The notes below the pieces were generated by a model. The model searched no databases. It was not told where the DNA came from and saw nothing but the letters and a program-made list of their open reading frames with translations. From Candidatus Bathyarchaeota archaeon (GTDB lineage: Archaea; Thermoproteota; Bathyarchaeia; Bathyarchaeales; Bathycorpusculaceae): DNA of 64,000 bases. Shown here one piece after another: positions 13,018 to 63,180 of the stretch. How positions within the stretch are numbered: position 1 is the first letter of the stretch; every line of letters begins with the position of its first letter. Made by a program: the position numbers and the translations under genes. The DNA is taken from positions 320,001-384,000 of the forward strand of contig CAWAKC010000003.1 of assembly GCA_963782525.1 (NCBI GenBank). Direction: 5' to 3'.

Positions 13018-13033
13018 TAAAAATCCAATAGTT

Positions 13034-15951: not shown

Positions 15952-16030
15952 GTTCTTTGGAAATTGTTGTTGCCTATACACTGCCATATTTCCTTCAGTG
16001 TTTTGGATTGGAGACGGTTTCTAAAGGGAC

Positions 16031-41493: not shown

Positions 41494-41660
41494 ACTCTTA
41501 GAAGAAGAAAAACGGCTAAATTCCTACAGAAAAGCTGTCCTTCTTCTTTCAATAATAGTAGAGCGCTCTGTTTTGGCTAGCACTTCTTCTAATAGTCATC
41601 AGATTACCTATCTGGTGTTTAACGGTGGGAATCTGGTTTAGACTTCTTTTTCTTCTTAAT
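41494..41660. repeat. Cluster of GAA/TTC palindromic intergenic elements
   Basis: ACTCTTAGAAGAAGAAAAACGGCTAAATTCCTAC...CTTCTTCTTTCAATA; near copy at 43199-43258. Confidence 0.75.
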
Positions 41661-41879
41661 TTGGAGGTTCAAGAGAGCTCAAACGAGGAAAACAACACTG
41701 TTTAGTCTGGCAGCATCAGCCGAAATGTAATGTCGGGCATAATGTTCTCCGCAACTGGCGAAAAAAGCCACTGGTACGCAGAACAAAGAAAATCCCTCAC
41801 TACCCTACTTGGTTGAAAAACAAGCAAACGCCAAAATTGACCCGGCATGCAGACCACAACAAAGAAGTGACGTTTTAAT

Positions 41880-41905
41880 TGGTGCGAGGGTGGAACTTGA
41901 ACCCG
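41880..41905 (-). other. Degenerate tRNA 3' fragment (T-arm + acceptor + CCA), att-like scar
   Basis: Minus strand CGGGTTCAAGTTCCACCCTCGCACCA; no 5' half visible. Confidence 0.45.
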
Positions 41906-42085
41906 TCCCCAGTGGAGACATCACCCGAAGACTCAACTATTAATCGTTTTTTTGGATAGTTAGATATACCAATTTTAAAACAAGCAAATCTTCTAATAAT
42001 TACGTTGCTTTTGGGAGGACAATAAGAAACGGAAACTGAAGCAGAGCACTTATTACTGGGTTAAACTTGGTTACTAACGAAAATA

Positions 42086-42676
42086 ATGCAGCGTTTGAAA
42101 ACTTTACGAGAAACGCTTAAACAAGAAAGCGTTGGTCCCATAATTCGCAGGTTCTTCATTAACACATTATTTGATTCTACTTTTATGCTGCTTGGAATAA
42201 TCGTGGGCTCAGCGTTCGCTGGAGCAGCAGCTGGCTTGAAAATAATCATACTCACTATGTTAACGACAAGTCTTGCTTTGGGCATCTCAACGGGTGTAAG
42301 CGTCTATGAAGCTGAGAGCTTAGAACAAGAACGAAAAATTGTAGATCTCGAAAAGGCACTTTTCACTGACCTAAAAGATACACTTATCCAAAAAACCGCC
42401 AAATATACTATAATAATTGCCACGTTAATCAACTTTGCAACACCCTTGTTCGCATGCGCTGTAACGATCACCCCTTTTATGTTTGTAGCCATAGGAATAT
42501 TGCCTCTGGATATAGCTGGGTGGATTTCTGTTGCGCTAGCCTTGAGTACATTATTTGGTGCAGGTGTTTACATTGGACGAATCGGAAAAACGAATCCCTA
42601 TAAAAAAGGGCTAAGGATGGTAGCCTTTGGAGTGCTTGCTTTCGCCATAGGTTTTCTCTTAAACCTACTCATTTGA
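42086..42676 (+). CDS. VIT1/CCC1-like membrane protein (TIGR00267-like)
   Basis: RRFFINTLFD...LLGII; ALGISTGVSVYEAE; adjacent to DUF211. Confidence 0.8.
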   Translation: MQRLKTLRETLKQESVGPIIRRFFINTLFDSTFMLLGIIVGSAFAGAAAGLKIIILTMLTTSLALGISTGVSVYEAESLEQERKIVDLEKALFTDLKDTLIQKTAKYTIIIATLINFATPLFACAVTITPFMFVAIGILPLDIAGWISVALALSTLFGAGVYIGRIGKTNPYKKGLRMVAFGVLAFAIGFLLNLLI

Positions 42677-42684
42677 GTAGCGAT

Positions 42685-42972
42685 TTAAGGTGTGGGTCTT
42701 TGTGAAATCTGCTTTGCCTTTGATACGTTAACTTCATCTACACCTTTAATTGAAACACCGTTTTCTTGTAAGATATTCACAATTCCGCTATATTCAATAT
42801 TGGCGCCCCTGACAGTGAGTTTTATTGTCTCAGTTTTTGCGTCAACGTCAGTTACTACGATATCGCATTCTTCAACCCCGTTTGTAGCACAAATTGCTTG
42901 AGATAGTTCCACAAGAGAGGTTTCTCGTGCTTTTAGAGCCTCGATTAAGACTCGTCGAATGTGAATTGTCAT
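42685..42972 (-). CDS. DUF211 family protein
   Basis: IRRVLIEALK...VTDVDAKTETIKLTVRG..I....GVSIKGVDEV. Confidence 0.8.
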   Translation of the reverse strand: MTIHIRRVLIEALKARETSLVELSQAICATNGVEECDIVVTDVDAKTETIKLTVRGANIEYSGIVNILQENGVSIKGVDEVNVSKAKQISQRPTP

Positions 42973-43198
42973 TATGTTTCTCCGTTCCTAAATACAGAGA
43001 TTATGTTTAAAACTCTTTTTCTAGCTAACAGCGTTAGGAGTTTGTTAGCTTGCGACACAATGCGGGGCTGATATGTGCCTCTCTTTGAAAAAGTTCGATT
43101 TAGACCCAGAATCATCCAGACATAGAGAGACTAAAAATTATTTTTCTTTGCATTACTATTGTTCCTTCCGCAAGACAGGATTGCAGACTTGATAGTCC

Positions 43199-43455
43199 AC
43201 TCTTAGAAGAGGAAAAACGGCTGAATTCCTACTGCAAAGCCCGTTCTTCTTTCCAATAGGCTTAGAAAAGTTGGCTGAGTAAAAGAAGACATTACCCTGC
43301 TTCTTCTTTCAACTTTAAGCTAATTTACTGTTGGATTCACCAGTTAACGGGTAGAAGAAGAAGATTGTTGAATTGCCACTTCTTCTTCTTTCAAATGGTT
43401 TAAGTCGAAAGAACAACAAAAAACAAAATTTTTCAACTGTGTTGTTCTAGAGAAG
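43199..43455. repeat. Cluster of four GAA/TTC or AAC/GTT palindromic elements
   Basis: Examples: GTAGAAGAAGAAGATTGTTGAATTGCCACTTCTTCTTCTTTC and AGAACAAC...GTGTTGTTCT. Confidence 0.75.
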
Positions 43456-43599
43456 GAAATTACACGTGAATAACATAGCAAGGATCATTTTCTTCGGTTA
43501 ATTTAGGCAGAATCTTTTTCTGAGCTGGGATATAAATATGGATTATAAATTACCCAAGTAAACCACAGCAATCTTATCTTTTTTTTGTTTGCGGAACGT

Positions 43600-45636
43600 T
43601 CATGGTTGTAGGTCTTCTGTCTGGCAGAGGACATAAGCGGAGCGAGATGGCAGATAGATGCTGAGCATATTTTGACTTTTCCCTTCAGTGTTGTCTACGA
43701 TAGTGAAGTGAGCCTGCTGGGAGTCCAAGCGCCCGTGTCCTCCGTACTTTTGTGCATCACTGTCTAGTATCATCCGGTATTTTCCAGGAGGAGCTTCAAA
43801 TCGATAATCCGTAAAAGATTGATGGGGATTAAAATTGAAGGCAAAAATCAAATCAGCCCTCTTGAATATAATTACCTTTTGTGTGGAATCCTCATGCAGA
43901 AGTTGCAGGCCAGGTTTTTCAAGTAAGTGGTATGTCTTGGCCATTGCAATCATGTCGCGATCGAAAAGAGCCAGCAAATGATACTTTAGGCGGGGGTCGT
44001 CCGCGAGATGCCATTGTCTAAGAGCGTGTTTGAATGACCAGTTGTTTCCTTCGCGGGGAAAATCTATCCAGTCTGGATGGCCGAATTCGTTGCCCATGAA
44101 ATCTAGATAACCGTTGCTGGCAGTGCTCAGTGTTATCAGCCGAATCATCTTATGCAATGCTATTCCCCGATCGACCTTAGCGTTGTCATCATCGATCCCC
44201 ATGTGATGGTACATGTCTTCCCCGATTAGTCGGAAAATAAGTGTTTGGTCTCCCACTAATGCCTGGTCGTGAGATTCGGCGTAACTAATGGTTTTCTCAT
44301 CTGTTCTGCGGTTGGTAAGTTCGAACCAAAGATGCCCGGTGGGCCAGTCTTCATCTTTGTAATCTTTTATCAGGCGGATCCAGTAATCAGGCACTCCCAT
44401 GGCAAAGCGATAGTCAAAACCGAAACCGCCTTCTAATTGGGGAACAGCTAAGCCCGGCATGCCGCTGACATCTTCGGCTATGGTGATGGCGTCGGGTCGG
44501 ACAGCATGAATTATTCGATTAGCCAAGGCAAGATAGGTGAGGGCATCTTCATCCACACTGTCATCGAAGTAATCGTTGTATGAAGTGAATACTCTCTTGA
44601 GACCGTGTCCCAGGTAAATCATGCTGGTGACGCCATCAAACCGAAAGCCGTCAAAGTGGAATTCGTCTAGCCAATATCGGCAATTGGAAAGTAAAAAATG
44701 CAGAACCTGAGGTTTGCCGTAATCAAAGACGCGTGAATCCCATGCCTTGTGTTTTCCGCGTGGACCTTCATGAAAATATTGAAATAGTGTTCCGTCGAAG
44801 CGGCTTAGTCCTTCTACCTCGTTGGATACTGAGTGGGAATGGATTAGATCCATGGAGACGCTGAGCCCTTTGGCGTGAGCTGTATCGATGAGGAGTTTTA
44901 GATCCTCGGGCGTTCCGTACCGTGATGAAGAGGCGAAAAAGCTTGATACTTGATATCCAAATGAACCATAGTATGGATGTTCTTGAATGGCCATCAACTG
45001 TAACGTATTGTAGCCGGCGTCGACAATTCGAGGAAGCACCCTTAGAGTGAATTCTTGGAAGGACCCGATTTTTTCTTCTTCCTGTGCCATACCGATATGT
45101 GCTTCGTAAATGATAGGGGGTTCTTTAGGTCGTTTGAAATTGGGTTCTTTCCAACAATATGGCTGTGGTGGTGACCATACTTGGGCGTTGAAAATCAATG
45201 TTTTTGGATCTTGGACGACCCGTCGAGCGTATGCCGGGATACGATCGCCTTCGCCTTCTGCCCAATGAATACGGAGTCGATACAGATCGCCATGTTTCAG
45301 TTTGTTGACGGATAGGTGAATTTCCCAGACGCCATATTCGTCGAACCTTTTGAGCTCAAATTCTTTGCTCTCTTGCCATTTACTCATGTCGCCTATCAGG
45401 TAGATTGCTGTTGCGTTTGGAGCCCATTCCCGAAATACCCATTCTCCTCTTTGAAAATGTAGACCGAAGTATTCGTGGCCAGAGGCAAACTCTGATAGGC
45501 TCTTTTTACCCTGTGTAAGGCGATGTTCTGTTTCTTCGATATTTTCCAATCGGTGTCGAATCTGATCAGAAAATGGCGTGAGATAAGAATCGCTTTTCAG
45601 CAGGCGTATTAATCGGTTTTCAGGACCACTCATCAA
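43600..45636 (-). CDS. glgB: 1,4-alpha-glucan branching enzyme, GH13 (GH13_8-like)
   Basis: FREWAPNA, IYEAHIGM, EHPYYGSFGYQV, FDGFRFDGVTSM, AEDVSG, YAESHDQALVGD, FMGNEFGHP. Confidence 0.95.
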   Translation of the reverse strand: MMSGPENRLIRLLKSDSYLTPFSDQIRHRLENIEETEHRLTQGKKSLSEFASGHEYFGLHFQRGEWVFREWAPNATAIYLIGDMSKWQESKEFELKRFDEYGVWEIHLSVNKLKHGDLYRLRIHWAEGEGDRIPAYARRVVQDPKTLIFNAQVWSPPQPYCWKEPNFKRPKEPPIIYEAHIGMAQEEEKIGSFQEFTLRVLPRIVDAGYNTLQLMAIQEHPYYGSFGYQVSSFFASSSRYGTPEDLKLLIDTAHAKGLSVSMDLIHSHSVSNEVEGLSRFDGTLFQYFHEGPRGKHKAWDSRVFDYGKPQVLHFLLSNCRYWLDEFHFDGFRFDGVTSMIYLGHGLKRVFTSYNDYFDDSVDEDALTYLALANRIIHAVRPDAITIAEDVSGMPGLAVPQLEGGFGFDYRFAMGVPDYWIRLIKDYKDEDWPTGHLWFELTNRRTDEKTISYAESHDQALVGDQTLIFRLIGEDMYHHMGIDDDNAKVDRGIALHKMIRLITLSTASNGYLDFMGNEFGHPDWIDFPREGNNWSFKHALRQWHLADDPRLKYHLLALFDRDMIAMAKTYHLLEKPGLQLLHEDSTQKVIIFKRADLIFAFNFNPHQSFTDYRFEAPPGKYRMILDSDAQKYGGHGRLDSQQAHFTIVDNTEGKSQNMLSIYLPSRSAYVLCQTEDLQP

Positions 45637-45669
45637 AATACCTTATTCTGTTTAAAAGGCCTTCTGATG

Positions 45670-45966
45670 TCATGGGATGTACTCTGTAACAAACTCTTCT
45701 GCTTTTTCTGCAGACAGACAATCTGACAGATACATCTTAATGAGTTCTTTCAAAGCATTCCTTCGTAGTTCCTTGTTATGTTGGTTATTTGATGCGTCGT
45801 TGATTTGGCTATTTTGGTTGTTGATCCAGCTGCATGGATTGTTGATGTCATAATTTGGATTGTAGAGGTCACTTTTTGGATTATTCAGGCAGCTATTTGG
45901 ATTGTCGTCTTGTGTCTTCAAGTCTTTTACAATTCTTCTAAAAAGCGAACCGATTGTTTCAGGCAT
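45670..45966 (-). CDS. Hypothetical protein with Asn-Pro heptad repeats
   Basis: NPNSCLN NPKSDLY NPNYDIN NPCSWIN NQNSQIN; GGAG SD. Confidence 0.6.
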   Translation of the reverse strand: MPETIGSLFRRIVKDLKTQDDNPNSCLNNPKSDLYNPNYDINNPCSWINNQNSQINDASNNQHNKELRRNALKELIKMYLSDCLSAEKAEEFVTEYIP

Positions 45967-46022
45967 ACGAATGCTCCTTTGTGACTATTATATTCCTAAG
46001 GTAAAACATTCTTATTAGTCTA

Positions 46023-47269
46023 CTAGAGCAACGATTCGTAGATTTTTAGTGTCTCATCAGCAACTTTGCGCCACGTGAAGTAGTCTAGTACTCTTTTGCG
46101 TCCATTCTCGCCCCAGTTTCGGGCTTTTTCGGGGTTTCGCAGGGTCAATTTTATTCCCCAAGCTATGTCGACGGGATCTTCACCGTTAACATGCACCCCG
46201 TTCTGGTCCGGCCAGAGCTTAATACTTGTTCTCTGAAACCTACCACGCCGCGCGCGCCTACAACCACTGGTTTCTCCATTGCCATAGCCTCCAGGCTAAC
46301 TATTCCGAAGGGTTCATAGACGGAAGGAAATATACATACGTCCGAAGCGGCGTAATGCATAATTCGCTCAGATTCCGAAACAAAATCAAAGCGGCAAGCT
46401 ACGTTATTCTTAATGTTTAGCCTATCTGCTGTTTCAATTATGTCTTGTTCGTCCCCTTTGCCCAGAATAACAAGTTTAGTGTTAGGAAATTCCTTCAAGA
46501 CAGATGGCATTGCTAACAAAAGGTTTCTAGCGCCCTTTACCCAAGATAGCCTTCCAACGAACAGAAGCATGCTCCAGTCCTTTGGAACGCCATATTTTTC
46601 TCGAATCGCTTCAATGTCCTTTGGATCACATTTTGCCATATCGTAACGTTCAGGGTCCACGCCGTTCCAAACTGTGCTTATTTTTGATGGCTCCCAACCG
46701 TGCCTTACTAGATCTTGTTTCATGGCGAAACTAACAGTGATTATTCTGTCTGATTTTTGGGCCATGGCGTCTTCAAAATGTGACACTACTTCTGACCCTT
46801 GACCCTCGCTTCTTCCCCATTCAGTGCTGTGTGTATGGAAGACCACGGGGATTTTTGTTTCATTTTTTATTATGAGACCCGAAATACTGCTAAGCCAATC
46901 GTGTACACAGACAACATCAAAATGGTATTTCTCTTTTTTTATCAGACCATTAATGAATTTAGTCGCGCTGAGAATATTGTACATGAAAATGTCATTGAAG
47001 AATTTTATGTTGGTGCCCCATCTCTTTAAATCGTCAACCACGAAAAATGGAAAAACATTGCTCGCATCAGCAATCAAGGGCCGATGAACCTCCACACCTC
47101 TTATGATTTCTCTGGTTTTCAAATTGCCGCCAAAATTCAGTGTGAAGACTGAAACGTCATGTCCTAAGGCGATATATTCCTGTGTCACGTTTTCAGCATA
47201 TGTACCCAAGCCACCAACAATCGCTGGTGGGTACTCGTAAACAAAAAATCCAATTCTCAAAATGTTCAC
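46023..47269 (-). CDS. GT4 glycosyltransferase (glycogen-synthase-like); 1-nt frameshift near 46212
   Basis: EYPPAIVGGLG, HDWL, HSTEWGR, YEPFGIVSLEAM. Adding one C restores ...SGPDQNGVHVNGEDPVDIAWGI...FTWRKVADETLKIYESLL* (stop 46023-46025). Confidence 0.88.
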
Positions 47270-47474
47270 CTGAATAAAAGTTCCCGACTAATTTCTAATT
47301 GTATTCATAAGGTTCCAAGTACTTAAATGAACTATAATTTTCCCAGCTTTTCATTATGATTTGGTTCAAAACTAGTGTGTATACTGCTGATTGTTTTGTG
47401 TGTGTTTATTAAAAATATTTTTTAAAAAAAGAAATTTGTTTGGGAGTGTTATGATGCGTTTGTTTATCTCTTTT

Positions 47475-47648
47475 TTAGAGTTTTTCTGGGGCGCAGAGAT
47501 TTTCTGCTTTGGCAGCTGTACGATAGCATCCTTTGCAGATGTATTGCGCATCTTTCACAAGTGGCTTAATCTTTTCTATAGGTACTTTGTCCTCTACCAT
47601 TTTGCAGAGGTGATTTTCATGACCCGGATGAGGTTGTGCTTTTGACAA
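47475..47648 (-). CDS. 57-aa Cys/His microprotein (not in ORF track)
   Basis: GGTG SD then TTG: MSKAQPHPGHENHLCKMVEDKVPIEKIKPLVKDAQYICKGCYRTAAKAENLCAPEKL. Confidence 0.7.
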   Translation of the reverse strand: MSKAQPHPGHENHLCKMVEDKVPIEKIKPLVKDAQYICKGCYRTAAKAENLCAPEKL

Positions 47649-47815
47649 AACTTACACCTAAACTACTGGTGCAGTATTGACAAATATACTATTGTGATTG
47701 TGTTTAAGCAACCACATCGTTCTTAGATAAATTGAAAGTTTTAGCCCCAGTGCCATTTCGGATGGTTGGTTTATCAAGGAGAATACCTTGTAAAACCTAA
47801 CTTCTCAAATAAAAC

Positions 47816-47860
47816 AAGAAGAACGGGTGATTTCCTACGGCATGTTTTTCTTCTTCTTTC
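47816..47860. repeat. Palindromic element, 45-bp copy of 53655-53699 (one mismatch)
   Basis: AAGAAGAACGGGTGATTTCCTAC[G/T]GCATGTTTTTCTTCTTCTTTC. Confidence 0.85.
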
Positions 47861-48094
47861 ACCCAAACATGATCATAGAGCAAATGTGAGTTTTTAGGAG
47901 CAAGAATTTTTATCGGTCCCAAGTTATGATTTTTTAGGGTGTATCCAGTCTCTAAAAGAAACAACAAGACACTTTTTCTAAAAAATATTCTTAGGCAATA
48001 TTCAATTAATCAATTCAACCACCCGGATTGTTGGCAATAATTAAATAATTTTATGTTACTGTGTGTTATGTGAAGTAATTGGAGGGCTGCTTCA

Positions 48095-48331
48095 ATGGTG
48101 AAAAATGTTATCGATTTAAACGAAAGGGACAGCCGAGTAATCAACATAGTTAAAGCGAAGTATGGGCTCAAAGATAAAAGCCAAGCTTTGAGCGTAATTA
48201 TCCAGCGTTATGAAGAGTGTGAACTTGAACCCCAGCTTAGACCCGAGTTTGTGAAGGAAATAGAGGACACATTTAAGAACGGTAAATTTGTCAAGGTTAA
48301 GAATTTCGCGGAAGAGATCGGGCTAAAGTGA
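48095..48331 (+). CDS. DUF2683-like antitoxin
   Basis: NIVKAKYGLKDKSQA...LEPQLRPEF; GGAGG SD. Confidence 0.78.
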   Translation: MVKNVIDLNERDSRVINIVKAKYGLKDKSQALSVIIQRYEECELEPQLRPEFVKEIEDTFKNGKFVKVKNFAEEIGLK

Positions 48332-48765
48332 TTGCTTGTACAGCCTTGAAATCGAGGAAGAGAGAAATGACCAAAGAAGAGGTTTACAAAGACTACGGCA
48401 TGTTCAGCGGTGTCAAAAGTAGGTTAAAAACCAAAACACGAAGACCCCCAAAGAAACTAAAACAGTGTTCCAAATGCGGCAGAGTAGGCGACGCAATGAC
48501 GAAACATTCACTCACAGGCGAACATAAGCCACCTTTCATATGGCTGTGCAGACAACCGTGCCACGACGAAGTGCACAAGTTTGGCATAAAAATGACTAAA
48601 GAAGAAAAAGCAGCACTAAAGCGGCAGCCACCATGCAGCGTACAATTTCCCACAAAAGACAACATTGCCAATCCATATACAAAACTAATTGAGCCTGAAT
48701 CGCTGGAAGGGGAAAAATTCAAGCAGTCATTCAAGCGAATAAACTCTGAAAATGAAGAAACATAA
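48328..48765 (+). CDS. Small Zn-binding HNH-like protein (probable start ATG ~48367)
   Basis: CSKCGR...MTKHSLTG...WLCRQPCHDEVH resembles the CxxC...H...LCxxCH HNH pattern. Confidence 0.55.
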   Translation: MIACTALKSRKREMTKEEVYKDYGMFSGVKSRLKTKTRRPPKKLKQCSKCGRVGDAMTKHSLTGEHKPPFIWLCRQPCHDEVHKFGIKMTKEEKAALKRQPPCSVQFPTKDNIANPYTKLIEPESLEGEKFKQSFKRINSENEET

Positions 48766-49464
48766 TAAAAAAGCTGAAAAACAAGTAAAACAATTAACAT
48801 TTTCCAATAGGCTTACACATAGAAAGTCGGCTCAGTTGGGAATTCGAGAAAACCGCAGAGAAAGAAAAATCGTTTGCTGCACAGGGAATTTTTTGGCGCG
48901 CTAGATCGGTTAATAGCCCTTCATATCGGAGGGTGTAGGCGCCGATGTTGCTTTCATAAACAAGCCATATAATCAAAAACTGTTTTTAAGATTATCCTTA
49001 ACTTGTCAGCTATTGATAAAAAGATTAGAGTAAGGTTGTGATGCCCGTTGAAGCTACTTTGAGCTAGTTCGTCTGCGTACTATCTCTGCAGAGGTATTCT
49101 TGTCTGGTAGGGGATTTGTTGATATTGCTTTTACGTCTTTTGCTAATTTGGGTGCGGTTTTATCGCTTTTATTCATATAGCCATCCTCATTTGCAGATGT
49201 GCTTTCTAAGTATTTAAGCGATTGATTAGAGCAGTCTTATATATCAAGTCAGCGCAGACTATCCGCTAAACTACACCCATAAATAGTCAGCTTTAGTCGT
49301 TAGAAGAAGAAAAACGGCGTTTTCCTAACCGAAAAATGACCATTTTTTCTTCAGATAAAAGACCTTATCGTTTTTCGAGCATCCTGTTAATTAAAAACAT
49401 TCAATTATAACATCGCCTGCACAATACTTGTATTATTCTTCAAGTTATTTTTTGATTGAGTTCT

Positions 49465-49680
49465 AGTAGTAGTCGACTTTGCTGCAAATTTCACTTCGAC
49501 AACTACTTCTCTTGATTTAAGAACTTTTTTTTATCGATTACTTTGCTATGTGTTTCAAAAATGTATACTTAGTAGAAGAAGCGCGATTTTTTTAATCTTC
49601 TTCTTTTGACCCATGATCCTTTGGCGCATAGCTTGCTTCTGGTAAAGTCAAGGTAGAAGTTGTTGTTCCTCCTAAAATTT
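49465..49680. repeat. ~215-bp imperfect direct repeat, left copy (made of palindromic units)
   Basis: Colinear with 53241-53455: AGTAGTAGTCGA..., GATTACTTTGC, ACTTAGTAGAAG, TGATCCTTTGGCGCATA, TCAAGGTAGAAGTTGTTGT. Confidence 0.85.
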
Positions 49681-53164: not shown

Positions 53165-53770
53165 CCAGTACTCTCAAGAGAAGAACAATAGTTGAAATAA
53201 CACGTGTTATTGTTCTCGCAGTCTGGCATTGAGCTTTGGAAGTAGTAGTCGATTGTGCAAATTTCAACTAGGTTACTATTTCTCTTATTTGAAGAACTTT
53301 TTTACCGATTACTTTGCAATGTGCTTCAAAATGTATAATTAACTTAGTAGAAGTGCAATTTTTTCAATCTTCTTCTTCTTTTGACCCCTGATCCTTTGGC
53401 GCATAACTTTCTTTTGGCAAGTTCAAGGTAGAAGTTGTTGTCCACTCTAAAAATTCACCCGTTCAACTTCTACCACTCTGAAATTCATTCGTCAAAACAA
53501 TCTCGTTAGAAGAAGTAGTGCACCCCTTTTTCTGCAAAGCGCACTACAACTTCTATAATGAAAAGAAAAAAACCCCAAAGCTTAGAAGAAGAAAAAACTG
53601 CTTCCAACAGAATTTAATTTTTTTTTCTATCAATAAAGCTAACTTCTCCAATAGAAGAAGAACGGGTGATTTCCTACTGCATGTTTTTCTTCTTCTTTCC
53701 AACAAGCCCAAAACGCTCACGCAACTAAAAGAAGAAGACGCTATCAATTTCTTGTTCTTTCAATTAGGGC
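53165..53770. repeat. Large cluster of palindromic elements: right copy of the ~215-bp repeat (53241-53455) and left copy of the 51-bp repeat (53689-53739)
   Basis: About seven AGAAG...CTTCT-type units in 600 bp with no credible ORF. Confidence 0.85.
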
Positions 53771-53893
53771 CAATTCAAAGCACAGCTAAATTTTTGAAGA
53801 AGCTGCTCACCTTTTTTTGCGGCAGGGCAACAAGTAGGATCGGCGCGGTTAGTAATAGGAAGAATCTCGACAATTCGTTACCTTTTTGAAGAT

Positions 53894-55839: not shown

Positions 55840-56120
55840 TTTAGAAGAAGAACGGAGTGTCAAGAAAAAAATTCCCCGTCTTGGATTAGTAGTAGTCGTC
55901 CAGGAAATTCAGCAGACGACTTCTTCTAATGATTTGTCCAGTGTTGAAAAACGTGTTTTTCTGCGGCAAGTAATTTTACTTCTTCTTTCCAACAAGCCCA
56001 AAACGCTCACGCAACTAAAAGAAGAAGACACAATCCCTATACACATCACTATCTTCTTCTACTGCTAAGAGAAGAAGAAAAAATCGGTTTTTCCTTAATA
56101 GCAATTTTTTCTTCTTTCAA
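55840..56120. repeat. Cluster of palindromic elements with right copy of the perfect 51-bp repeat (55979-56029)
   Basis: CTTCTTCTTTCCAACAAGCCCAAAACGCTCACGCAACTAAAAGAAGAAGAC is identical to 53689-53739. Confidence 0.9.
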
Positions 56121-56208
56121 TCATTCATGTAGATGAGCGTGCGAATTGGGTGAATACAGACGATTATTATGTTTATGAAAAAAAGAAAGGAAGTTTTTGT
56201 TTAGTTTT

Positions 56209-58878
56209 TTATGGTCTTTTTCTGATCATAAGGGCGAGTACGACGCCGACTATTGCTATTGCTATGATGATTGCTACTGCTGCGCCTGCGACGTACATTT
56301 CGGTTTGGGGAATAATGACCTCGGGGTATGGAGATGTTGTTGGTGCTGTGTCGATTGCAGTGAAATGTGCTTCGGCAGACGATGGATAGTATGATGCTGA
56401 ACCTGCGAAGGTAGCTATAACTGTGTAGTCGCCGGCAATATCAGGTGTCCATGTAAAAGCGAATGTACCGCTAGTATCGCTTGTTGTGTTGCCGAGTGGT
56501 CTAAAGTTGCCGTTAGAGTCAACTACGTTGATTGATATTGGGACTCCGGTTGCGTTTGTGGGTTTTGCCTGCTGTTCGTATACATATTCCATCCATGCTT
56601 CTTGGCTTGCATCGGATACACATGGAACACCGTTGGGGAAGTTTGCTGCTTGGGCATTTTGAGTTGTGCCTGCACAGATGTCTGTTATTGTTCCGCTTAT
56701 TACCACTGGTGTTGAAGTTGATACTCCAATGTTAGGTGCTGTGACGGTTGTTTTGCTGGGTCCTTGGCCGATGCAGTATATTTGGTTGTCATAGGCGTTA
56801 AGGGCTAGAAGGAAGCCGTCTCCGATGATAGCGTTGCTGCCGCCGTTTCCTCCTGCGGCCATGTTGACTCCGAATTCCATTATTTTCCATAATTCTGCTC
56901 CGTTTGAAGCGTTTATGCAGCGGAAGTTTGGACCGCGCCAGAGAGGTTGAGAGGGCGAGTGTTCACCGCAGCCAATGTAGATTTTTCCATCTGCCACGCA
57001 GCTAATTGCGCCTGGATAGTTGCCGTATGGGGATTCGAAGCCGACTTGTGCGCATGTGTAGTTCCAGAGTTTTTCTCCTGTTTTGACGTCATAGGCATTG
57101 AGTACGCCGCCGTAGGTGAGTTCTATGATTTTGCCTTGATAGATATTGTACATCATTCCGTAGAAATCTAAGTCTGACACTGGTTCGGTTGGACCCCAGA
57201 GTGGTTGTCCGGTTGCAAGGCTGTAGCCCCAAAGTTGTCGTGTAAGTCCTTGTGCAAAGATGAAGACGCCGTCTTCTGGGTCAATTGGTACTCCGTAGGC
57301 ACCGCTGCCAATGGCCATTGTTCCTCTTGTGCTGTAAACAGTTGATGTTGCTGTGTCTGAATATGGAGGCGTGAAGGTAATGTTCCAGAGAAGCGATGGA
57401 GTAATTATTCCGTTATTATCTGGTTTAAGATTCAAAGCCCATAAATTACCCTGCACCGTCCCACTTGGATCATTTTTCCCTTGAGTTCCACCGATAACGA
57501 ATTGATCTTCACGGACGCAATATATGCTGCCCTGTATCGCTGGAATCGATGCATTCAATGAGAAGCCGTTGTTTCCATCGTAAGTCACGTTTAGGCCAGG
57601 TCGCCACATCCAATAGTTGTTAGCTGTGAAGGCAGAATAGTCACGGTTTTGGTACATAGCTGAAGTGCCCCTCCACCAGATAGCTTGAGTTGTATTCCAT
57701 ACTGTCAGATAGTATCGGGGGTTTGCAGTTGTTCCATAATTGACGATGTTATAGCGTAGTATACTTCCGTCTTTTCCGTAGACCGCTGTACCTGACGACG
57801 ACACGTTTGCTATGCTGCACATGTAGTTACCTGAGAAGGCATCGTACATCATCCAAGTGTTTGCTGTAGCTGCACTAGTGCTCCATAGGTATGGGAAACC
57901 GCCGTGTTGGTTAGGTGATTCGTAGTTGAGTATTTGACCAAATGCCAGTGACTGACCCGGAATACTGCCTGAGGAAGATTGGCTTGGTGCGGTTATTGAA
58001 CCGGTAGTGTTGTAGAAGTAGTCTGTTTGGCCTGTATATAGATCCACGCAATACCAGCCTTCTTTCGGGAGCGATTGAACGTTGTAGTAGAGTTTTCCAT
58101 TCATTATTATTGGTGGAGCAAAAGCTAGGCCTTCGTAGTGGAACGTTTGGTAGCCTATGTCGTTGAATCGTGCATCCATAATGCCTCCAGCCCACATTGG
58201 TCTTGTCCACATTACGTGAGCGCTTTCTGGTCCGTCGCCGTATGCAAAATTGTTAGTTGCGCCAACAGTTTGAGCTGCGCCGGACAACCAGTTTCCGGCA
58301 AGCGTGTACCAGTTTCTATTTAGATCATTTATTGGGCGTGTCCAGTATGCTGATGGGAGAGGAGTCTCTTGCCATTGGGCTATTGGGTCCTGCTGAACGG
58401 TGACTGTAAGTGCGGTGCTTGTGGCGGCTGTAAAAGTGTCGTTCACGTATGTTAGGCTTTGACCGACGGAAGCAGGCGCCAGAGGGTTACCTGTCATCAC
58501 CTGTTGAGCTTGTCTTGCGACGAATGTGTATGTGCCCACTTCAGTAGGTGTGTATGAAGCGTATCCACCTCCAATAGGATCAGAGGTGATTGGTCCTAAC
58601 GAATCATTAGTTCCGCTAGGCTTCATGATGTCCACGTAGAAGATGAATCTGTCACCGTAATCGCCAGTAGCGGTTGGTGGGTAATTATTGCTCCAGAAAA
58701 TAATGTTCTCTTGCTGACCGACGCCTATGACGCTATTTGTGACTGCAATGTAACAATAGTCAACAACAGTCCATGCGGGATAATGAGCTTCAGAGAGAGG
58801 CAAACCGACAAACGAAATAGTGATTGTTAACATCAAAATTATTGCTATCAAAAATGCTATAGTTTTTTTCTTTTCCAT
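56209..58878 (-). CDS. Secreted PQQ-type beta-propeller repeat surface protein (paralog 2)
   Basis: Same architecture as 38682; EAWMEYVYEQQAKPTNATGVPI; TM + RKRP. Confidence 0.88.
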   Translation of the reverse strand: MEKKKTIAFLIAIILMLTITISFVGLPLSEAHYPAWTVVDYCYIAVTNSVIGVGQQENIIFWSNNYPPTATGDYGDRFIFYVDIMKPSGTNDSLGPITSDPIGGGYASYTPTEVGTYTFVARQAQQVMTGNPLAPASVGQSLTYVNDTFTAATSTALTVTVQQDPIAQWQETPLPSAYWTRPINDLNRNWYTLAGNWLSGAAQTVGATNNFAYGDGPESAHVMWTRPMWAGGIMDARFNDIGYQTFHYEGLAFAPPIIMNGKLYYNVQSLPKEGWYCVDLYTGQTDYFYNTTGSITAPSQSSSGSIPGQSLAFGQILNYESPNQHGGFPYLWSTSAATANTWMMYDAFSGNYMCSIANVSSSGTAVYGKDGSILRYNIVNYGTTANPRYYLTVWNTTQAIWWRGTSAMYQNRDYSAFTANNYWMWRPGLNVTYDGNNGFSLNASIPAIQGSIYCVREDQFVIGGTQGKNDPSGTVQGNLWALNLKPDNNGIITPSLLWNITFTPPYSDTATSTVYSTRGTMAIGSGAYGVPIDPEDGVFIFAQGLTRQLWGYSLATGQPLWGPTEPVSDLDFYGMMYNIYQGKIIELTYGGVLNAYDVKTGEKLWNYTCAQVGFESPYGNYPGAISCVADGKIYIGCGEHSPSQPLWRGPNFRCINASNGAELWKIMEFGVNMAAGGNGGSNAIIGDGFLLALNAYDNQIYCIGQGPSKTTVTAPNIGVSTSTPVVISGTITDICAGTTQNAQAANFPNGVPCVSDASQEAWMEYVYEQQAKPTNATGVPISINVVDSNGNFRPLGNTTSDTSGTFAFTWTPDIAGDYTVIATFAGSASYYPSSAEAHFTAIDTAPTTSPYPEVIIPQTEMYVAGAAVAIIIAIAIVGVVLALMIRKRP

Positions 58879-59025
58879 TTTTAACTCTTTCCTTTACACT
58901 TTGTTTGGCAAGTAAACTTTCATTAGATTGCCTGCCAACAAAATCAGTTATCGCCCCAAGAAATATTTAAAATATTGGCTTCTTTTGCTAATCATACGGT
59001 TTTTTTCTTTCAATTATCAACCCTA

Positions 59026-59150
59026 CCAGTACTTCTAAGAGAAGAACAAAAACAACTGAAATTTTGGCGTGTTGTTGTTCTTCCGATCAGGGGAAGCAAC
59101 CAGCTAACTAAAAGAAGAAGAAGCGCCCCTGCGGCAACCTTCTTCTTTTA
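59026..59150. repeat. Two palindromic elements between surface-protein paralogs
   Basis: GAAGAACAAAAAC...GTGTTGTTGTTCTTC and AAAAGAAGAAG...CTTCTTCTTTT; the first resembles 53165-53217. Confidence 0.75.
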
Positions 59151-59416
59151 GGCCTTGGCGAGCCCAAGTAACAAACTTTTTACAAACTGTTAAAGAAAGA
59201 TAGGTTGCAGCTAGAAGCTATAAATAAGAAAATTATCCAGATCCTACCCGATCCATATCATTCAAACCCCTAAAATACCCATTGGACGGCCTACCTCTTA
59301 GCGACTAGCTGTCAGTTTTGTTGATTAAATCGTTCAATTGGTCTATGGCGCTCAGGCTGTATGCCCTTAATTTTTTGGACTAAAAAAGGGGAAGATTAGG
59401 TTTTTGTTTGGCATAT

Positions 59417-62218
59417 TTACGGTCGTTTCCTAAGCATTAAGACGACGATAGCGCCGACTATGGCTATTGCAATGATTATGGCGGCTGTTGAAAGGGCGAA
59501 GTACATTTCTGTATTTGACTGGGCTTGTGCTGGTGCTGGGGACGTTGTTGGTGCTGCTGCGCCTACGTATGCGATAGTATTGGCGCTTGAACTGCCGTAA
59601 GAACTTGATCCTTTGAAGGACGCAATTATCGTGTACTGCCCAGGCACGTCTGGAGTTGTCCACGAGTAGCCAAAGCTGCCGCTTGAATCACTTACTGCGT
59701 CGCCGATATGGATGATGTTGCCGTTGGGGTCAATAGCGTCTATCGATACTGGTACACCGGTTGCGTTTGACGGCTTCGCTTGCTGTTCGTAGATGTATTC
59801 CATCCATGCTTCCTGGCTCTCGTCTGATACTGCGGGGATTCCATTGGTGTAGCCCAATTTGGGACCGTTTGTCTTTGCACCCGGAGACATATCACTTACT
59901 GTACCAGAAATCACGTAGGTGGACCCTGCCGGCATACCTGTCTGTGGCGCAGAGACAGTAGTTGCACTTGGCCCTTTGCCGATGCAATATATCAGGTTGT
60001 CATAGTCACTCGCGGTTACGATGTAGCCATCTGCGATGCCATAGCCTGTTAAGAAGACAGCGTAATTCGCTAGTTTCCAAATCTGTGCTCCATCGGTTGC
60101 GTTTATGCAGTAGATGTATGAGCTGCGCCAGTTGGGTTTAGTGGGAGAGTGCTCGGATGTGTATGTGTAGATTTTTCCGTCGCAAACCGCGCTTATGAAG
60201 ACTGGTTGATTATCGCCGTATGGACTCTCGTAAGGCAAGGCTGTAGCGTTCCAAGTCCACAATTGTTGCCCTGTCTGTACGTCTAAAGCCATGATCTCTC
60301 CTGCATAGTTGTAGTCTGCAAGGACTTTGCCGTAGTATATGTTACTACTTACGCCGTAGTAGTACATCTGCTGAGTGGTAGCTGTATTTGGTCCCCACAA
60401 AAGGGTTCCATCTTTCAAGCTGTAGCCCCATAGCTGACCTGTTTGTTTGCAGTTCAAGATGAAAACTTGGTCGTCATAACTTATGCCGCCCAAGAGCCAG
60501 GTATAGTTCAGGCCAGGTAATGGAACCGTCAATTGTTTGTTGTAAACCAGAGTAGCTGTGAAGCCAAGGTTGGTTTGCCATGTGGAAGGTAGGCCGGGAT
60601 AAGGACTATAATCTGCTGCGTGGTCGTTAATGTTCACAAGCCATACTGAAAACGTGTCCGGTGAAGGTCCACCGCCGATTGAGCTGGTTCCTATGCTGGC
60701 GTAGCCGAATAGCTGTTTCGGAACACGATTATCGTCTTGCAAGACTGCAGTGAAGCCCACTGACGATGCACCGTAAGCAGCGGAAACAGGCAGGTTCTTG
60801 TCTATTGTTACGTTCATTGAGTATCCAGAATGCGGTTTGGACATCGCGGCCAGTAAATCCGGCTCTAGACCAACACTCCAGGCTCCGGGAGCCCACGAAG
60901 TATCGTTGACAGCGTCTATTACTCCTCCTATGCGAGGTTTCCATTGTTGTTGCGTTGTTCCTATGGCTCCCCCTGGATAGATAGCTTGGCTGGAATTCCA
61001 GCAGAGTACGTTGCCTGTGCTAGGATTGTAGCTGTAAATCAATAAGTCTCCGTTTTCGTCCACCGCAGACGTACCTGATGGCACGTTTTTCAGCGTAAGC
61101 ATCCAATTTCCTGTTGCCGCATCAAGCATGTACCATGTGGTGCCGGACTGCATCCAAAGGTATGAGAGCACTCCATTTCCGTTCACGCCGTACCAGTGGT
61201 AGAGTTGTCCTTGGGTCAGCCGCGGAAAACTCTGAGAGAGAGCAGGAGCCCCTCCTCCAAAAGCGCCAGTTGTAGGGGCGGTTATACCGTTGAGGCCGTT
61301 GTCAGTGCCGTTCTTATACCATACTATTTCTCCTGTGTATAGATCTCTGCAATAGTATCCGTACTGCACACTGTCGCCGACGGCTGGTGTATTGTAGTAG
61401 ATTTTTCCGTTCATAATAATCTGCGATTGGAATGACTGCTCGTAGTCTTCAGGGTTCGAGGAGATACCAGGCCACTGTGCGTCAAGAATGCCTCCGCTGC
61501 GAGCTGGCTGTATATCCTGTGTCCACATTATGTGGGCGCTTTCCGGTCCGGTCCCCGCTGGTTGGAACCCATAGGGATTCCAGCCGCCTCCACCGCCAAA
61601 CGCACTGCCGCCCAGCCAGTTGCTCGCGAGCATCGACCATCCTCTGTTCATGTCGTTTATTGGCACTTCCCAGTAGTCTGTTGGAAGCGCAGGTTCTTGC
61701 CAACTAGCTACTGGCTCTTGTTGTACGTTAAGATACGCTGGTTTGCTTGTGGAACCTCCGTAGAAATCACCGATGGAAGGACTCGTCGGGACAGCAGGGC
61801 TGGCTTTTACTGTTTCTCCGGGCCAGCTGAATATGATGGTGTAATTGCCGATCTGATCTGGGACGTATACTTTAGAATCGGCGCCGACATCACTTGCGCA
61901 TTGAAATGGTCCGATAGTATCGTTGGTTCCGTCTGGTTTTATAATGTCGATTTTGAAGCCGTTCCAACGCTGTCCGATTCCACCGCCAGCAGTCGGCGAA
62001 TACCTATCAACCCACACTACAATAGTTGTGTATTGGCCGAGGCCGACGGTGCTTGGTGACAAAGCAACGTAAGCGTTCGTTGGAACATTCATTGCGTTAA
62101 CATTTGGCAATGCATAGCAGTTTACGGCAATAGTTAGCATCAGAATTAAAGCAATCAATGAAAGAAGTTTCTTGTGAAACAATTTCATCTTTCTTATTTC
62201 CTTAAAAGTATAGTACAC
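59417..62218 (-). CDS. Secreted PQQ-type beta-propeller repeat surface protein (paralog 3; start probably MKLFHKK)
   Basis: GPESAHIMWT, IIMNGKIYYN, EHSPTKP, EAWMEYIYEQQAKPSNATGVPV; TM + RKRP. Confidence 0.88.
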   Translation of the reverse strand: MYYTFKEIRKMKLFHKKLLSLIALILMLTIAVNCYALPNVNAMNVPTNAYVALSPSTVGLGQYTTIVVWVDRYSPTAGGGIGQRWNGFKIDIIKPDGTNDTIGPFQCASDVGADSKVYVPDQIGNYTIIFSWPGETVKASPAVPTSPSIGDFYGGSTSKPAYLNVQQEPVASWQEPALPTDYWEVPINDMNRGWSMLASNWLGGSAFGGGGGWNPYGFQPAGTGPESAHIMWTQDIQPARSGGILDAQWPGISSNPEDYEQSFQSQIIMNGKIYYNTPAVGDSVQYGYYCRDLYTGEIVWYKNGTDNGLNGITAPTTGAFGGGAPALSQSFPRLTQGQLYHWYGVNGNGVLSYLWMQSGTTWYMLDAATGNWMLTLKNVPSGTSAVDENGDLLIYSYNPSTGNVLCWNSSQAIYPGGAIGTTQQQWKPRIGGVIDAVNDTSWAPGAWSVGLEPDLLAAMSKPHSGYSMNVTIDKNLPVSAAYGASSVGFTAVLQDDNRVPKQLFGYASIGTSSIGGGPSPDTFSVWLVNINDHAADYSPYPGLPSTWQTNLGFTATLVYNKQLTVPLPGLNYTWLLGGISYDDQVFILNCKQTGQLWGYSLKDGTLLWGPNTATTQQMYYYGVSSNIYYGKVLADYNYAGEIMALDVQTGQQLWTWNATALPYESPYGDNQPVFISAVCDGKIYTYTSEHSPTKPNWRSSYIYCINATDGAQIWKLANYAVFLTGYGIADGYIVTASDYDNLIYCIGKGPSATTVSAPQTGMPAGSTYVISGTVSDMSPGAKTNGPKLGYTNGIPAVSDESQEAWMEYIYEQQAKPSNATGVPVSIDAIDPNGNIIHIGDAVSDSSGSFGYSWTTPDVPGQYTIIASFKGSSSYGSSSANTIAYVGAAAPTTSPAPAQAQSNTEMYFALSTAAIIIAIAIVGAIVVLMLRKRP

Positions 62219-63065
62219 TTATTGTACAAGGGGTTGTTTACTTGTCTGGGAATTTAAATCTTTTGCAAATTTCTTTTTTACTTACATAAAAAATTAGACC
62301 GCCATGTAATAATTAAGCAAAGTATTTTGAGATTAACTGCAAATTTTTAGAGGTAGATTGCCGCTTTTTGGCGAGAAAGAAAGTTTAGCGCTGGCTATTT
62401 GTAGTTGCATTGTGTAGCCACATTAACTTTTATTTTCTATTGAGTTAATTAAAAGTAACGCTTTATATGTTGGGCAGGTCTGGCGGCTAATAGGCGACAA
62501 GATCCCCTCTCTCTTCCACCGTTTTTTGCCTTATCCCCTTTAGCGTGAGGCTAAGCCTCTTAACAGCTATTTTCTCTTCTTGGGCTCAAGTCCACGGTAT
62601 AAGGGTTTGATACATATCCGTTTTTGAAATTCCTTCTTAAACATCTGCTCGAACCTAGGTTTGAGGAGAAAGGAGAACTTCTCACCATAAAATAGATCCC
62701 TGAGGTTTGTATGTTGGTTGAAGAAATACTTGATATGATCCTAAACAGCCAAGACGGCGACTATGTTATTCAAGTCCAAGGCTTGCAGGCATGCAACCCG
62801 CAGGCAGGAACATTTATAGTAGTTTTTGGCTCAGCTCTTCAGCTAGAAATTGATTAATTGTGCACCGTTGGGTTTCTTGTCGTTCACAGAATTGAAAAGT
62901 CTTCGCTGTGTCAAACCCTTGCGATCTTAATTTCATGAATTTGATTGCTCTCCAGGTAGCCAAGGAGATTAAACGGCTTAATTTGGAACCTGTAGAAAGC
63001 ATGGCAAAGTTTTCTCTTGAGGCAAGTATTCTTCGTTCAAACATATTTAAGATCTATTTTTCGTT

Positions 63066-63180
63066 GGAAGAAGAAGACAACAGTGCTGTGTGCAGGAGCC
63101 ATTCTCTTCTTCTTTCAACTAATTCATTACTTAGAAGAACAACAACACTGGAAAATTGTTTGTTGTTGTTCTTCTTCCAA
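63066..63180. repeat. Two palindromic elements
   Basis: GAAGAAGAAG...CTTCTTCTTTC and AGAAGAACAACAACA-CTGGAAAATTGTT-TGTTGTTGTTCTTCT. Confidence 0.8.

Follow-up and report, generated by a model that had tools for sequence, protein, structure and literature searches.

Repeats of the REP type and their partner enzymes have been described almost entirely from bacteria. An HUH transposase is thought to drive them, a transcript-stabilising or terminator role has been proposed for many bacterial REPs, and the BIMEs of E. coli bind IHF and gyrase. In most REP families over 90% of the members bear the tetranucleotide GTAG (or CGTC) on one of their ends (PMC3733652). For the neisserial dRS3/NIME repeats, targeting by a specific phage recombinase and a possible role as substrates of recombination have been described (PMC11893778). 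For the IS110 family, targeting of REPs and a bridge RNA at the right end are described in PMC11208160, whose reference list names IS1111-group elements as targeting attC sites too. A search of the literature for equivalents in archaea or Bathyarchaeia, at the level of listings and abstracts, found no such family described.

The repeat family analysed here belongs to an archaeon, Candidatus Bathyarchaeota, of whose genome a stretch of 64,000 nucleotides (hereafter the window) was taken as the starting point. A unit reads purine-rich arm first (AGAAGAAG or AGAACAACA), then loop, then complementary arm. The stems of 9–15 bp are built of GAA, AAC or TAG triplets, with three stem “alphabets” of perfect complementarity, and enclose loops of 11–30 nt that fall into few recurring types, several of which have an AAATTT A/T-tract core in common. 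Units are often flanked by GGT on one side and TTCAA on the other, a head and tail more regular than the GTAG or CTAC found at one end of 25 of 88 units.

A covariance model (R1) was trained on units of this genome, its E-values being rough, and only the outer 8 pairs were modelled because the MAFFT alignment of the units (A2) shows triplet-register shifts. With filters off it recovered 16 distinct units in the window at E ≤ 0.01, all between 41499 and 63179 (Table 1). Twelve of them match by construction, since they are training rows of the model; those at 41499, 43204, 47810 and 49570 are not. The best match outside this interval lies at position 26061 (E = 0.017), and positions 1–41000 hold no unit at E ≤ 0.01, in agreement with the near-absence from a housekeeping stretch that the sequence-only reading had noted. 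The eight clusters which it had listed all contain purine-arm-first hairpins. Its count of more than 20 palindromes depends on the threshold: about 22 are reached once weaker units are added (43280, 53178, 53345, the stem 53427–53474 and the TAG-armed 49465–49507 and 55885–55930), as against 16 at E ≤ 0.01. Two outliers assigned to the same family do not belong to it: the one at 1986–2190 belongs to another repeat family, built of (TTG)n plus CAACAACAA, that has 29 BLAST matches in the genome, and the one at 30808–30838 has no other copy in the genome and no R1 match. An ORF of 123 aa (53518–53889) that overlaps the largest cluster has no Pfam match.

Table 1. Hairpin units and arrays in the window (positions are those of the window)
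Feature	Position	Strand	Evidence	Members and remarks
Single unit, TTCCTAC-loop type (H1)	41499..41551	.	R1 41.9 bits; z -2.9	Degenerate arm remnants continue to about 41660
Four-unit array	43204..43449	.	R1	43204-43254 H1, imperfect; 43280-43311 short; 43349-43393 GGGT-headed GAA type (H5); 43406-43449 AAC-armed (H6)
Lone H1-type unit	47810..47861	.	R1 42.7 bits	
Three units	49301..49608	.	R1, folding	49301-49354 A-rich stem; 49465-49507 TAG/CTA-armed; 49570-49608 AAATTT-loop type
Largest cluster, between convergent genes	53178..53762	.	R1	53178-53220; 53345-53383 degenerate; 53427-53474, perfect 11-bp stem GGTAGAAGTTG...CAACTTCTACC; 53583-53632; 53649-53700 (H1 type); 53726-53762
Array	55842..56119	.	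R1 46.9 bits, folding	Weak unit near 55842; 55885-55930 TAG-armed; 56016-56064 CACACA-loop (H2); 56069-56119 (H3), AAGAAGAAAAAAT stem, top R1 score of the window
Two units	59039..59150	.	R1, folding	59039-59085 AAC-armed, AAATTTTGGCG loop; 59109-59150 GC-rich loop type
Two units	63065..63179	.	R1; z -6.0	63065-63117; 63132-63179, GAA/AAC hybrid stem with 15 perfect pairs

Across the genome, hairpins as a whole are not enriched (557 inverted vs. 819 mirror repeats). The unit pattern AGAAGAAG-N8-40-CTTCTTCT occurs 57 times vs. 8 for its mirrored control, and perfect stems of at least 9 bp are purine-first in 64 cases and pyrimidine-first in 15. The type of one arm covaries strongly with that of the other: the ordered pairs GAA..TTC, GAA..GTT, AAC..TTC and AAC..GTT were counted 50, 5, 5 and 22 times, compared to 13, 12, 15 and 13 in the reverse-order control, which bears out the earlier observation that triplet identity changes on both arms together. 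In an RNAalifold consensus of 48 units two stem columns carry swaps from G-C to C-G, in 11 and 12 sequences. Of 12 window units that were folded as single-stranded DNA, 9 reached z ≤ -2.4 (range -0.36 to -5.96). Neither tRNA nor tmRNA was found in the window, which also gave no Rfam match at the gathering threshold, hits between 41 and 64 kb being at chance level (E of 2.7 or more); the repeats thus fall into no Rfam RNA family.

Twenty-one arrays of two or more units were identified in the genome, all of them intergenic, as had been claimed for the window. At about 70 units and 21 arrays the copy number is low. The arrays are ordered and contain up to six units (about 400 bp) at a median spacing of 70 nt. 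Adjacent units alternate in orientation in 13 pairs and point the same way in 3, with 27 pairs not callable. The same loop types recur in ordered arrays at five loci (C11, C9, C7, C1 and C2) and conserved linkers are visible, so that the regular spacing, alternation and conserved linkers of BIME-type mosaics are all present. Their neighbours are unrelated genes, among them those for TFB, ribosomal protein L3, LysRS, a CLC channel and an MFS transporter, and a scan of 19 array-neighbour proteins and the IS transposase revealed no recombinase or nuclease among them. According to crude ORF calls, 11 arrays lie in tandem, 7 in convergent and 3 in divergent intergenic regions. The family itself is confined to part of one genus plus one genome of a sister genus: pattern matches range from 0 to 62 among 25 genomes of the genus, in 9 of which the family was not found, and are 2 or fewer in each of 16 other genomes of the order, and the R1 scan of a class-wide sample (121 genomes, 70 genera) matched only this genome and one from the sister genus.

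The units might work mainly as RNA, that is, as bidirectional 3′-end hairpins, terminators or exonuclease blocks that would stabilise transcripts of their neighbours, often of large genes. Their purine-first polarity would give a hairpin with a U/C-rich 3′ arm whichever strand is transcribed, and H3 has a T6 run in the 3′ arm on both strands. Convergent settings account for 7/21 arrays vs. 19% of all intergenic regions, 25 3′ ends vs. 17 5′ ends face the arrays, and 18 of the 42 flanking genes are at least 500 aa long, compared to 12.5% genome-wide. However, the distribution of settings shows no significant departure from the genome-wide one (chi-square about 3, 2 degrees of freedom), the genes on either side of three arrays are divergent, and six consecutive hairpins exceed what a terminator needs. 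The 9 of 25 same-genus genomes in which the family was not found and the missing Rfam match also speak against such a role, as do T runs that are mostly ≤3 nt. Stem mismatches are not mainly of the G-T type either, 14 of 33 being transition-type, though this wobble count does not discriminate between an RNA-level and a DNA-level role. We regard a primarily RNA-level function as rather unlikely. Alternatively, the arrays could be binding platforms for a host DNA-binding protein, for example a regulator or a factor involved in chromatin or DNA topology. The common AAATTT core and regular spacing of about 70 nt would fit, and the loop, which keeps its orientation relative to the flanks in 13 pairs and is flipped in 5 (mostly involving one unit), is compatible in its few flipped copies with recognition of duplex DNA. 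We know of no candidate binding protein for the units, and a core function would be hard to reconcile with so uneven an occurrence among the genomes of the genus. We consider this alternative distinctly improbable.

The sequence-only reading had further held that the palindromes separate the modules of the accessory region. This is true within the window, where synteny with the closest relative (G023) breaks within 65–150 nt of units: collinearity ends at 41419, near the unit at 41499, and the unit 47810..47861 follows, at a distance of about 65 nt, a 4.1-kb block that has its right end at 47745 and is located elsewhere in that genome. The association is not specific, however, as four indel or replacement events also fall in the first 40 kb of the window, which contain no repeats. 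The arrays themselves turn over by gain or loss of whole units between orthologous loci. At C11, H6 is precisely missing from the orthologous array of G023, in which a deletion has also fused H3 and H4, whereas G010 retains both. At the C1 locus some array positions are kept across species in G001, at a flank identity of about 80%, which could mean that they are useful to the host. No clean pair of filled and empty sites with target duplication was found. At C2 a 432-nt array-bearing segment lies between GGTTTTAKCC repeats, a 10-bp direct repeat; it looks like an insertion with target-site duplication, but the same right end occurs in G010, which makes this reading ambiguous.

The second analogue proposed earlier is the attC site, at which the cassettes of an integron-type system recombine. 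The hairpins do contain AAC/GTT triplets, and the modules between them are arranged differently in the closest relative. Yet these modules measure 2–4 kb and are found in both orientations, up to six units occur in tandem without ORFs between them, arrays across the genome also adjoin housekeeping genes, and by inspection the arms read CTTCTTCT or TGTTGTTGTTCT and not RYYYAAC...GTTRRRY. In the genome search the best match to the integron integrase (TIGR02249) reached 42 bits vs. a cut-off of 265; a missed integrase is possible but unlikely at a genome completeness of 95.8%. All 10 tyrosine-recombinase matches in the genome fall outside the window. We consider the attC analogy so improbable as to be nearly negligible, and it is not upheld.

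If the units were true REP/REPIN elements, a RAYT-type HUH tyrosine transposase would move them in trans. The BIME-like alternating arrays are in line with this, and some units carry GTAG, the tag of one REP superfamily (PMC3733652). Three PF01797 genes do occur in the genome, but they are IS200-like, with their own GC-rich end hairpins and an identical 576-bp stretch shared by two of them. Within about 1 kb of these genes there are neither units nor GAA or AAC motifs, and none of the three is the unit-flanked HUH/RAYT gene that the earlier reading proposed to look for. Furthermore, four repeat-rich genomes (G001, G007, G010 and G012; 36–42 pattern matches, 91–98% complete) have no PF01797 match, and GTAG is restricted to the minority of units given above. 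The RAYT reading is already largely refuted and we hold it to be highly improbable.

Several candidates for a partner enzyme were rejected by their distribution among genomes. PF01797 proteins show a mismatched phyletic pattern in addition to being unlinked to units, with 10 matches in the repeat-free G002 and 7 in G016 (3 pattern matches). A small GIY-YIG nuclease is present in 23 of 24 genomes of the genus, with or without repeats, and an HNH-like ORF of 145 aa is found in 7 of 31 genomes, including the repeat-free G002 and not the repeat-rich G007. The IS that targets the hairpins has, as a spreader, no match at E ≤ 1e-30 in the repeat-rich G010 and G012, and for TnpB there is one sub-threshold PF07282 match only.

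This IS is an IS110/IS1111-type element that sits in AAC-armed units at one fixed position of the 3′ arm, in four independent copies. In G000 it lies on contig C1, outside the window, where it interrupts an AAC unit of which G023 and G010 have an undisrupted version at that site; the sequence targeted, TGTTGTTGTTCT, is also the 3′ arm of the unit 63132–63179. The junction TGTTGTTG|IS|TGTTCT is identical in 4 of 5 close copies. The transposase has both PF01548 and PF02371 (E 1.5e-20 and 1.4e-23, above cut-offs), the left end measures ~45 nt by inspection, and the non-coding right end of 196 nt (170–197 in other copies) matches no Rfam family. Guide-like segments of 8 + 4 nt in the right end match the AAC-arm target; in the G042 lineage, where the target differs, the segments have changed along with it. 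By inspection, subterminal inverted repeats (TATGGGAAGT / TATGTGAAGT) were recognised as well. The element thus has the features of the IS1111 group of the IS110 family, with a DEDD transposase, a short left and a long right end with a putative target-matching RNA, and site-specific insertion, a layout that agrees with the one described in PMC11208160. The best reading of these insertions is that the repeats serve as IS landing pads in rearrangement-prone regions.

Taken together, we favour as probable the explanation that these are lineage-specific, dispersed, hairpin-forming intergenic DNA repeats, an archaeal counterpart in architecture of REP/BIME or dRS3/NIME. The units would act at the DNA level, and the formation of hairpins or cruciforms may keep their arms complementary, whether one arm templates the correction of the other as the DNA is replicated or selection acts on the stem. 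Recombination, slippage and the transfer of segments from array to array, in place of a dedicated HUH transposase, would account for spread and reshuffling. As homologous sequence at dispersed loci, the arrays may make the intervening gene modules prone to rearrangement. A host-level role, e.g., in formation or stabilisation of transcript 3′ ends, would be secondary.

Several observations count against this explanation: the missing pair of clean filled and empty sites, the kept C1 positions and the synteny breaks without repeats, as well as the pyrimidine/U-rich 3′ arm on both strands, the bias towards 3′ ends and the large neighbours, which would suit a role as RNA.

It is tempting to speculate, though we think it quite unlikely, that the arrays are working sites of a RAYT-independent archaeal recombination system, in which a putative enzyme, possibly RNA-guided like the IS110-type recombinase by which the AAC arm is already read, cuts or pairs the hairpins, copies units from locus to locus and exchanges the modules between arrays. 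If true, the arrays would be a cassette-shuffling scaffold and not passive repeats, with many of the modules being large surface proteins. The family shows that REP-like architecture (hairpin units, mosaic arrays and IS110 targeting) has arisen in an archaeal genus, and without the HUH transposase. In the AAC unit, an archaeal element of the bridge-RNA type has a defined target in nature, and the family lends itself to asking by what means repeats of this kind spread and if the shuffling of surface-protein genes is driven by them.

The inserted element, as distinct from the repeats, resembles REP-targeting elements of the IS1111 group such as IS621 and ISPpu9 in its DEDD transposase, its end lengths, its subterminal inverted repeats, its fixed insertion in a palindromic repeat and its target-matching right-end segments, but it has an archaeal host, an AAC-armed unit as target and a putative guide RNA in a non-coding end that no Rfam family matches. 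With integron attC sites, thought to act as folded single strands, the repeats have in common imperfect palindromes between gene modules, whereas IntI, a layout of one site per cassette and the R/L core boxes (GTTRRRY) are lacking here. The neisserial dRS3/NTS repeats and NIME arrays show no sequence relationship to our family, and a GIY-YIG partner of the Ssn type is unsupported; yet they form the same intergenic hairpin mosaics near variable genes. Compared to the bacterial REP/BIME/REPIN families of E. coli, Pseudomonas and Stenotrophomonas, whose stems are GC-rich and loops small, the units have an archaeal host, AT-rich triplet stems and larger loops, with an inconsistent GTAG tag, low copy number and no linked RAYT; thus the conserved tag and the cognate flanking RAYT of REP/REPIN-RAYT systems are absent and the extragenic palindromes present. 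The REP/BIME analogy drawn in the earlier reading fails in its RAYT link and stands in anatomy: both are short, imperfect, extragenic, multi-copy palindromes with complementary stem changes among subfamilies, arranged in alternating mosaics, targeted by IS110-family elements and varying widely in abundance between related genomes.

The genome from which the window (C3:320001-384000) derives (2.87 Mb, 12 contigs, 95.8% complete) belongs to an archaeon, as indicated by its AlaRS, which matches the archaeal equivalog at 1117 bits (cut-off 745), and by a gene encoding the archaeal tRNA-modification enzyme TiaS. In all eight clusters of palindromes described in the sequence-only reading of the window we found hairpins whose 5' arm is the purine-rich one. 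Inverted repeats with perfect stems of at least 9 bp show no general enrichment in this genome (557 vs. 819 mirror repeats), the exception being the purine-first class, with 64 perfect stems of at least 9 bp vs. 15 pyrimidine-first ones; the pattern AGAAGAAG-N8-40-CTTCTTCT occurs 57 times genome-wide vs. 8 times in a mirrored control. Purine-first hairpins number 105 at 62 places, 21 of which hold two to six units in an array; all 21 arrays are intergenic according to crude ORF calls, and one overlaps a 123-aa ORF without Pfam match. A covariance model (R1) built from 48 aligned units recovered 16 distinct units at E ≤ 0.01 when the window was scanned with filters off, every one within 41499-63179 and none in positions 1-41000; twelve are training rows of the model, the remaining four being those at 41499, 43204, 47810 and 49570. 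The initial count of more than 20 units is reached (∼22) by adding weaker matches, a perfect 11-bp stem and TAG-armed units. Genome-wide, R1 gave at least 117 strand-hits at E ≤ 0.01, corresponding to roughly 70 units, with 150 of ∼3,700 candidates scored. Folded as single-stranded DNA, 9 of the 12 units tested had z ≤ -2.4 relative to shuffled sequences. Two outliers originally assigned to the family had to be removed from it, as the one at 30808-30838 has no further copy and no R1 match and the one at 1986-2190 belongs to another repeat family. This second, unrelated family, composed of a (TTG)n run, then CAACTGCATTTTGCAG...CAACAACAA and finally CTG repeats, has 29 BLAST matches in the genome, including an identical copy of 206 nt, and overlaps in the window an 80-aa ORF without Pfam match (see table).

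Each unit consists of a triplet-built stem of 9-15 bp around a loop of 11-30 nt, and many units are bordered by GGT at one end and by TTCAA at the opposite end. The stem takes the form AGAAGAAGAAG or AGAACAACAACA, with GAAGTAGTAGTCGA as a rarer third, and the loops belong to a few recurring types, e.g., TTCCTAC, CTGCACACA, TTGAAAAATTTGC, AAAATTTTGGCG and CGCCCCTGCGGCAAC. An ordered series of six unit types (H1 to H6, ∼400 bp) is repeated at several loci with conserved linkers, the median centre-to-centre spacing within arrays is 70 nt, and neighbouring units alternate in 13 of the 16 pairs for which the flanks gave an orientation (27 further pairs were uncallable). The claim that the triplets of both arms change together was borne out by the test proposed for it: GAA in the 5' arm is followed by TTC in the 3' arm in 50 cases and by GTT in 5, and AAC by TTC in 5 and by GTT in 22, vs. 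13, 12, 15 and 13 for the same four classes in a reverse-order control using arms of neighbouring units. RNAalifold, run on 48 sequences, additionally revealed G-C to C-G swaps in two columns of the stem, carried by 11 and 12 sequences. This covariation shows that the stem physically forms, and is compatible with folding as DNA or RNA and with selection as well as arm-templated correction.

Comparison with related genomes, foremost the closest relative G023 (88-95% identity), revealed turnover at the level of single units. In the orthologous array on contig C11, G023 lacks exactly unit H6 and carries an H3-H4 fusion deletion, and G010 keeps both. The C1 array is present in G010 and G023, with two units in G001 (∼80% flank identity), and at a C7 locus four units in our genome correspond to one of another type in G001 and to none in G023 and G012. 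On C2, a 432-nt array-bearing segment is missing in G023 between GGTTTTAKCC repeats; because its right end is common to G010, insertion and deletion are not distinguishable. Collinearity of the window with G023 stops at 41419, 80 nt ahead of the first unit, the block 43597-47745 sits 20 kb away in G023, again adjoining units, and most of 48.8-63.7 kb is without close counterpart in the compared G023 region. One synteny junction lies 12 nt past the 3' arm of a unit, and three of the six array loci compared are at collinearity breaks. The proposal that units separate accessory modules thus holds in that breaks adjoin units here, but four indel or replacement events in the first 40 kb, a stretch of the window that lacks the repeats and served as control, indicate that this association is real without being specific. 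Two variable regions of the window have edges without hairpin units: a low-GC (38-39%) segment of 8.8 kb, replaced by ∼3.2 kb in G023, where pieces of it match other contigs, and a PAS/HAMP histidine-kinase gene that is missing in a G023 region collinear in all other respects.

As a family of REP/BIME-like hairpin elements, the repeats are archaeal and genus-restricted. Among 25 genomes of the genus (ours included), the number of pattern matches varies between 0 and 62, with at least 9 in nine genomes and none in another nine, and the dominant loop type varies from species to species; 16 genomes from other genera of the order have at most two matches each, i.e., control level. When 121 genomes representing 70 genera of the class were scanned at E ≤ 1e-4, R1 matched only the genome it was trained on and a single sister-genus genome.

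No Rfam family matched the units, and they are linked to neither an integron integrase nor a RAYT. The attC-like reading was discarded, as no match to the integron-integrase model exceeded 42 bits (cut-off 265) and the units stand in tandem without ORFs, with neighbouring genes in both directions. Of the REP/BIME reading, the hairpin units and their arrays stand and the RAYT link does not. The three PF01797 genes of the genome are IS200-like with GC-rich end hairpins of their own (an identical 576-bp pair and a third, diverged copy), and no GAA/AAC motifs lie within ∼1 kb of them. Across the genus, PF01797 and repeat abundance are unrelated: four genomes (G001, G007, G010, G012) have 36-42 pattern matches and zero PF01797, and G002 has ten PF01797 matches and zero pattern matches. 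GTAG, which according to PMC3733652 tags one superfamily of bacterial REPs, was seen in no more than 25 of 88 units. Small GIY-YIG (Ssn-type) proteins, the kind of partner that a section of PMC11893778 describes for neisserial NTS/dRS3 repeats, are encoded in 23 of 24 genus genomes whatever the repeat count. Genes adjoining arrays include those for TFB, ribosomal protein L3, LysRS, a CLC channel, an MFS protein and a ferredoxin, and no recombinase was found among them. The window also contains a small Cys/His-rich ORF (145 aa, HNH-like by eye and without library match) that follows a 78-aa ORF; ∼480 nt of this stretch recur at 97% identity on C10, where a hairpin unit lies 11 nt away, and a broken copy lies on C1. 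The ORF is present in 7 of 31 genus genomes, uncorrelated with repeat abundance.

An IS1111-like element specifically targets the units. A single-copy IS of 1,230 bp, whose IS110-family transposase carries PF01548 and PF02371, adjoins the C1 array and splits an AAC-type unit (...AGAACAACAGCA-loop-TTGTTGTTG, then the IS, then TGTTCT...); the site is empty in G010 and G023, with the hairpin intact. Close relatives occur in several of 61 genus genomes. Of five copies with at least 84% protein identity and both ends present, four (one in our genome, one in G005, two in G023) are inserted at the same position of four different AAC or hybrid units and the fifth (G043) in a degenerate look-alike; copies at ∼70% identity and a group at 37% have other targets. 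The latter group comprises four near-identical copies in G001 with a different fixed target (...TTGCTTTTTAGA precedes the element and CATCGAAAAA-like sequence follows it), and a copy at 72% protein identity in G016 directly follows a tRNA-3'-end-like sequence (GGTTCAAGTCCGGCTCGGCCCACTCCCA). The transposase starts ∼45 nt from the left end and is followed by 196 nt of non-coding sequence, and the right end holds GACG[TGTTGTTG]ATTGA and ATAGG[TGTT]TGCC, whose bracketed segments match the target on its left and right flank, respectively. The G042 copy is flanked by TTTAGCGCG and CGCTGCC, and there these two segments are TTAGCGCG and CGCT, i.e., they change in step with the target. This layout is that described for IS1111-group bridge-RNA elements in a part of PMC11208160, which also mentions insertion of the IS110 family into REPs. 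The element thus looks like an archaeal bridge-RNA element, its guide RNA and circular intermediate being inferred here. It is not the maintainer of the repeats, because no copy was found at E ≤ 1e-30 in G010 and G012, both of them rich in repeats.

Coordinates of sequence features discussed in the text
Feature	Location	Relation to hairpin units
IS110/IS1111-type element	C1:217996-219240 (locus L059 2497-3741), outside window	inside AAC-armed unit
Distant IS110-family copies	G001 loci L120, L127, L130, L133	
IS copy after tRNA-like sequence	G016 locus L115	
(TTG)n repeat	window 1951-2193; copy C11:115147-115352	unrelated family
Low-GC variable region	window 7485-16330	edges without units
PAS/HAMP histidine-kinase gene	32644-34947 (missing stretch, window 32564-34999)	boundaries without units
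HNH-like ORF	window 48328-48765	
Stretch with HNH-like ORF	window 48095-48850; C10:171761-172243; C1:44157-44354 (broken)	
Putative shared module, 3' part of 889-aa gene	window 56180-56830	
IS200-like PF01797 genes	C3:60074-60649; C3:287737-288312; C7:224408-224767 (diverged)	unlinked

The units would act at the DNA level. Several features would be compatible with a role at the RNA level: the purine-first polarity places a U/C-rich 3' arm in predicted transcripts of either strand, more gene 3' ends than 5' ends face arrays (25 vs. 17), 7 of 21 arrays lie between convergent genes (vs. 19% of all intergenic regions), and large genes are frequent neighbours (at least 500 aa in 18 of 42 flanking positions, representing 14 distinct genes as several are counted twice, vs. 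12.5% genome-wide); however, the overall distribution of intergenic types does not differ significantly from background. The large array-flanking genes in the window encode proteins of beta-propeller, Ig-like and NHL type, which have the look of surface proteins. One coding stretch of ∼650 nt, in the 3' part of the 889-aa gene, has dozens of 63-72% identical matches per genome in five related genomes, suggesting that a C-terminal module is shared by many paralogous large proteins, probably exposed at the cell surface.

Recombination and slippage, with no transposase dedicated to the task, would account for the spread of the family.
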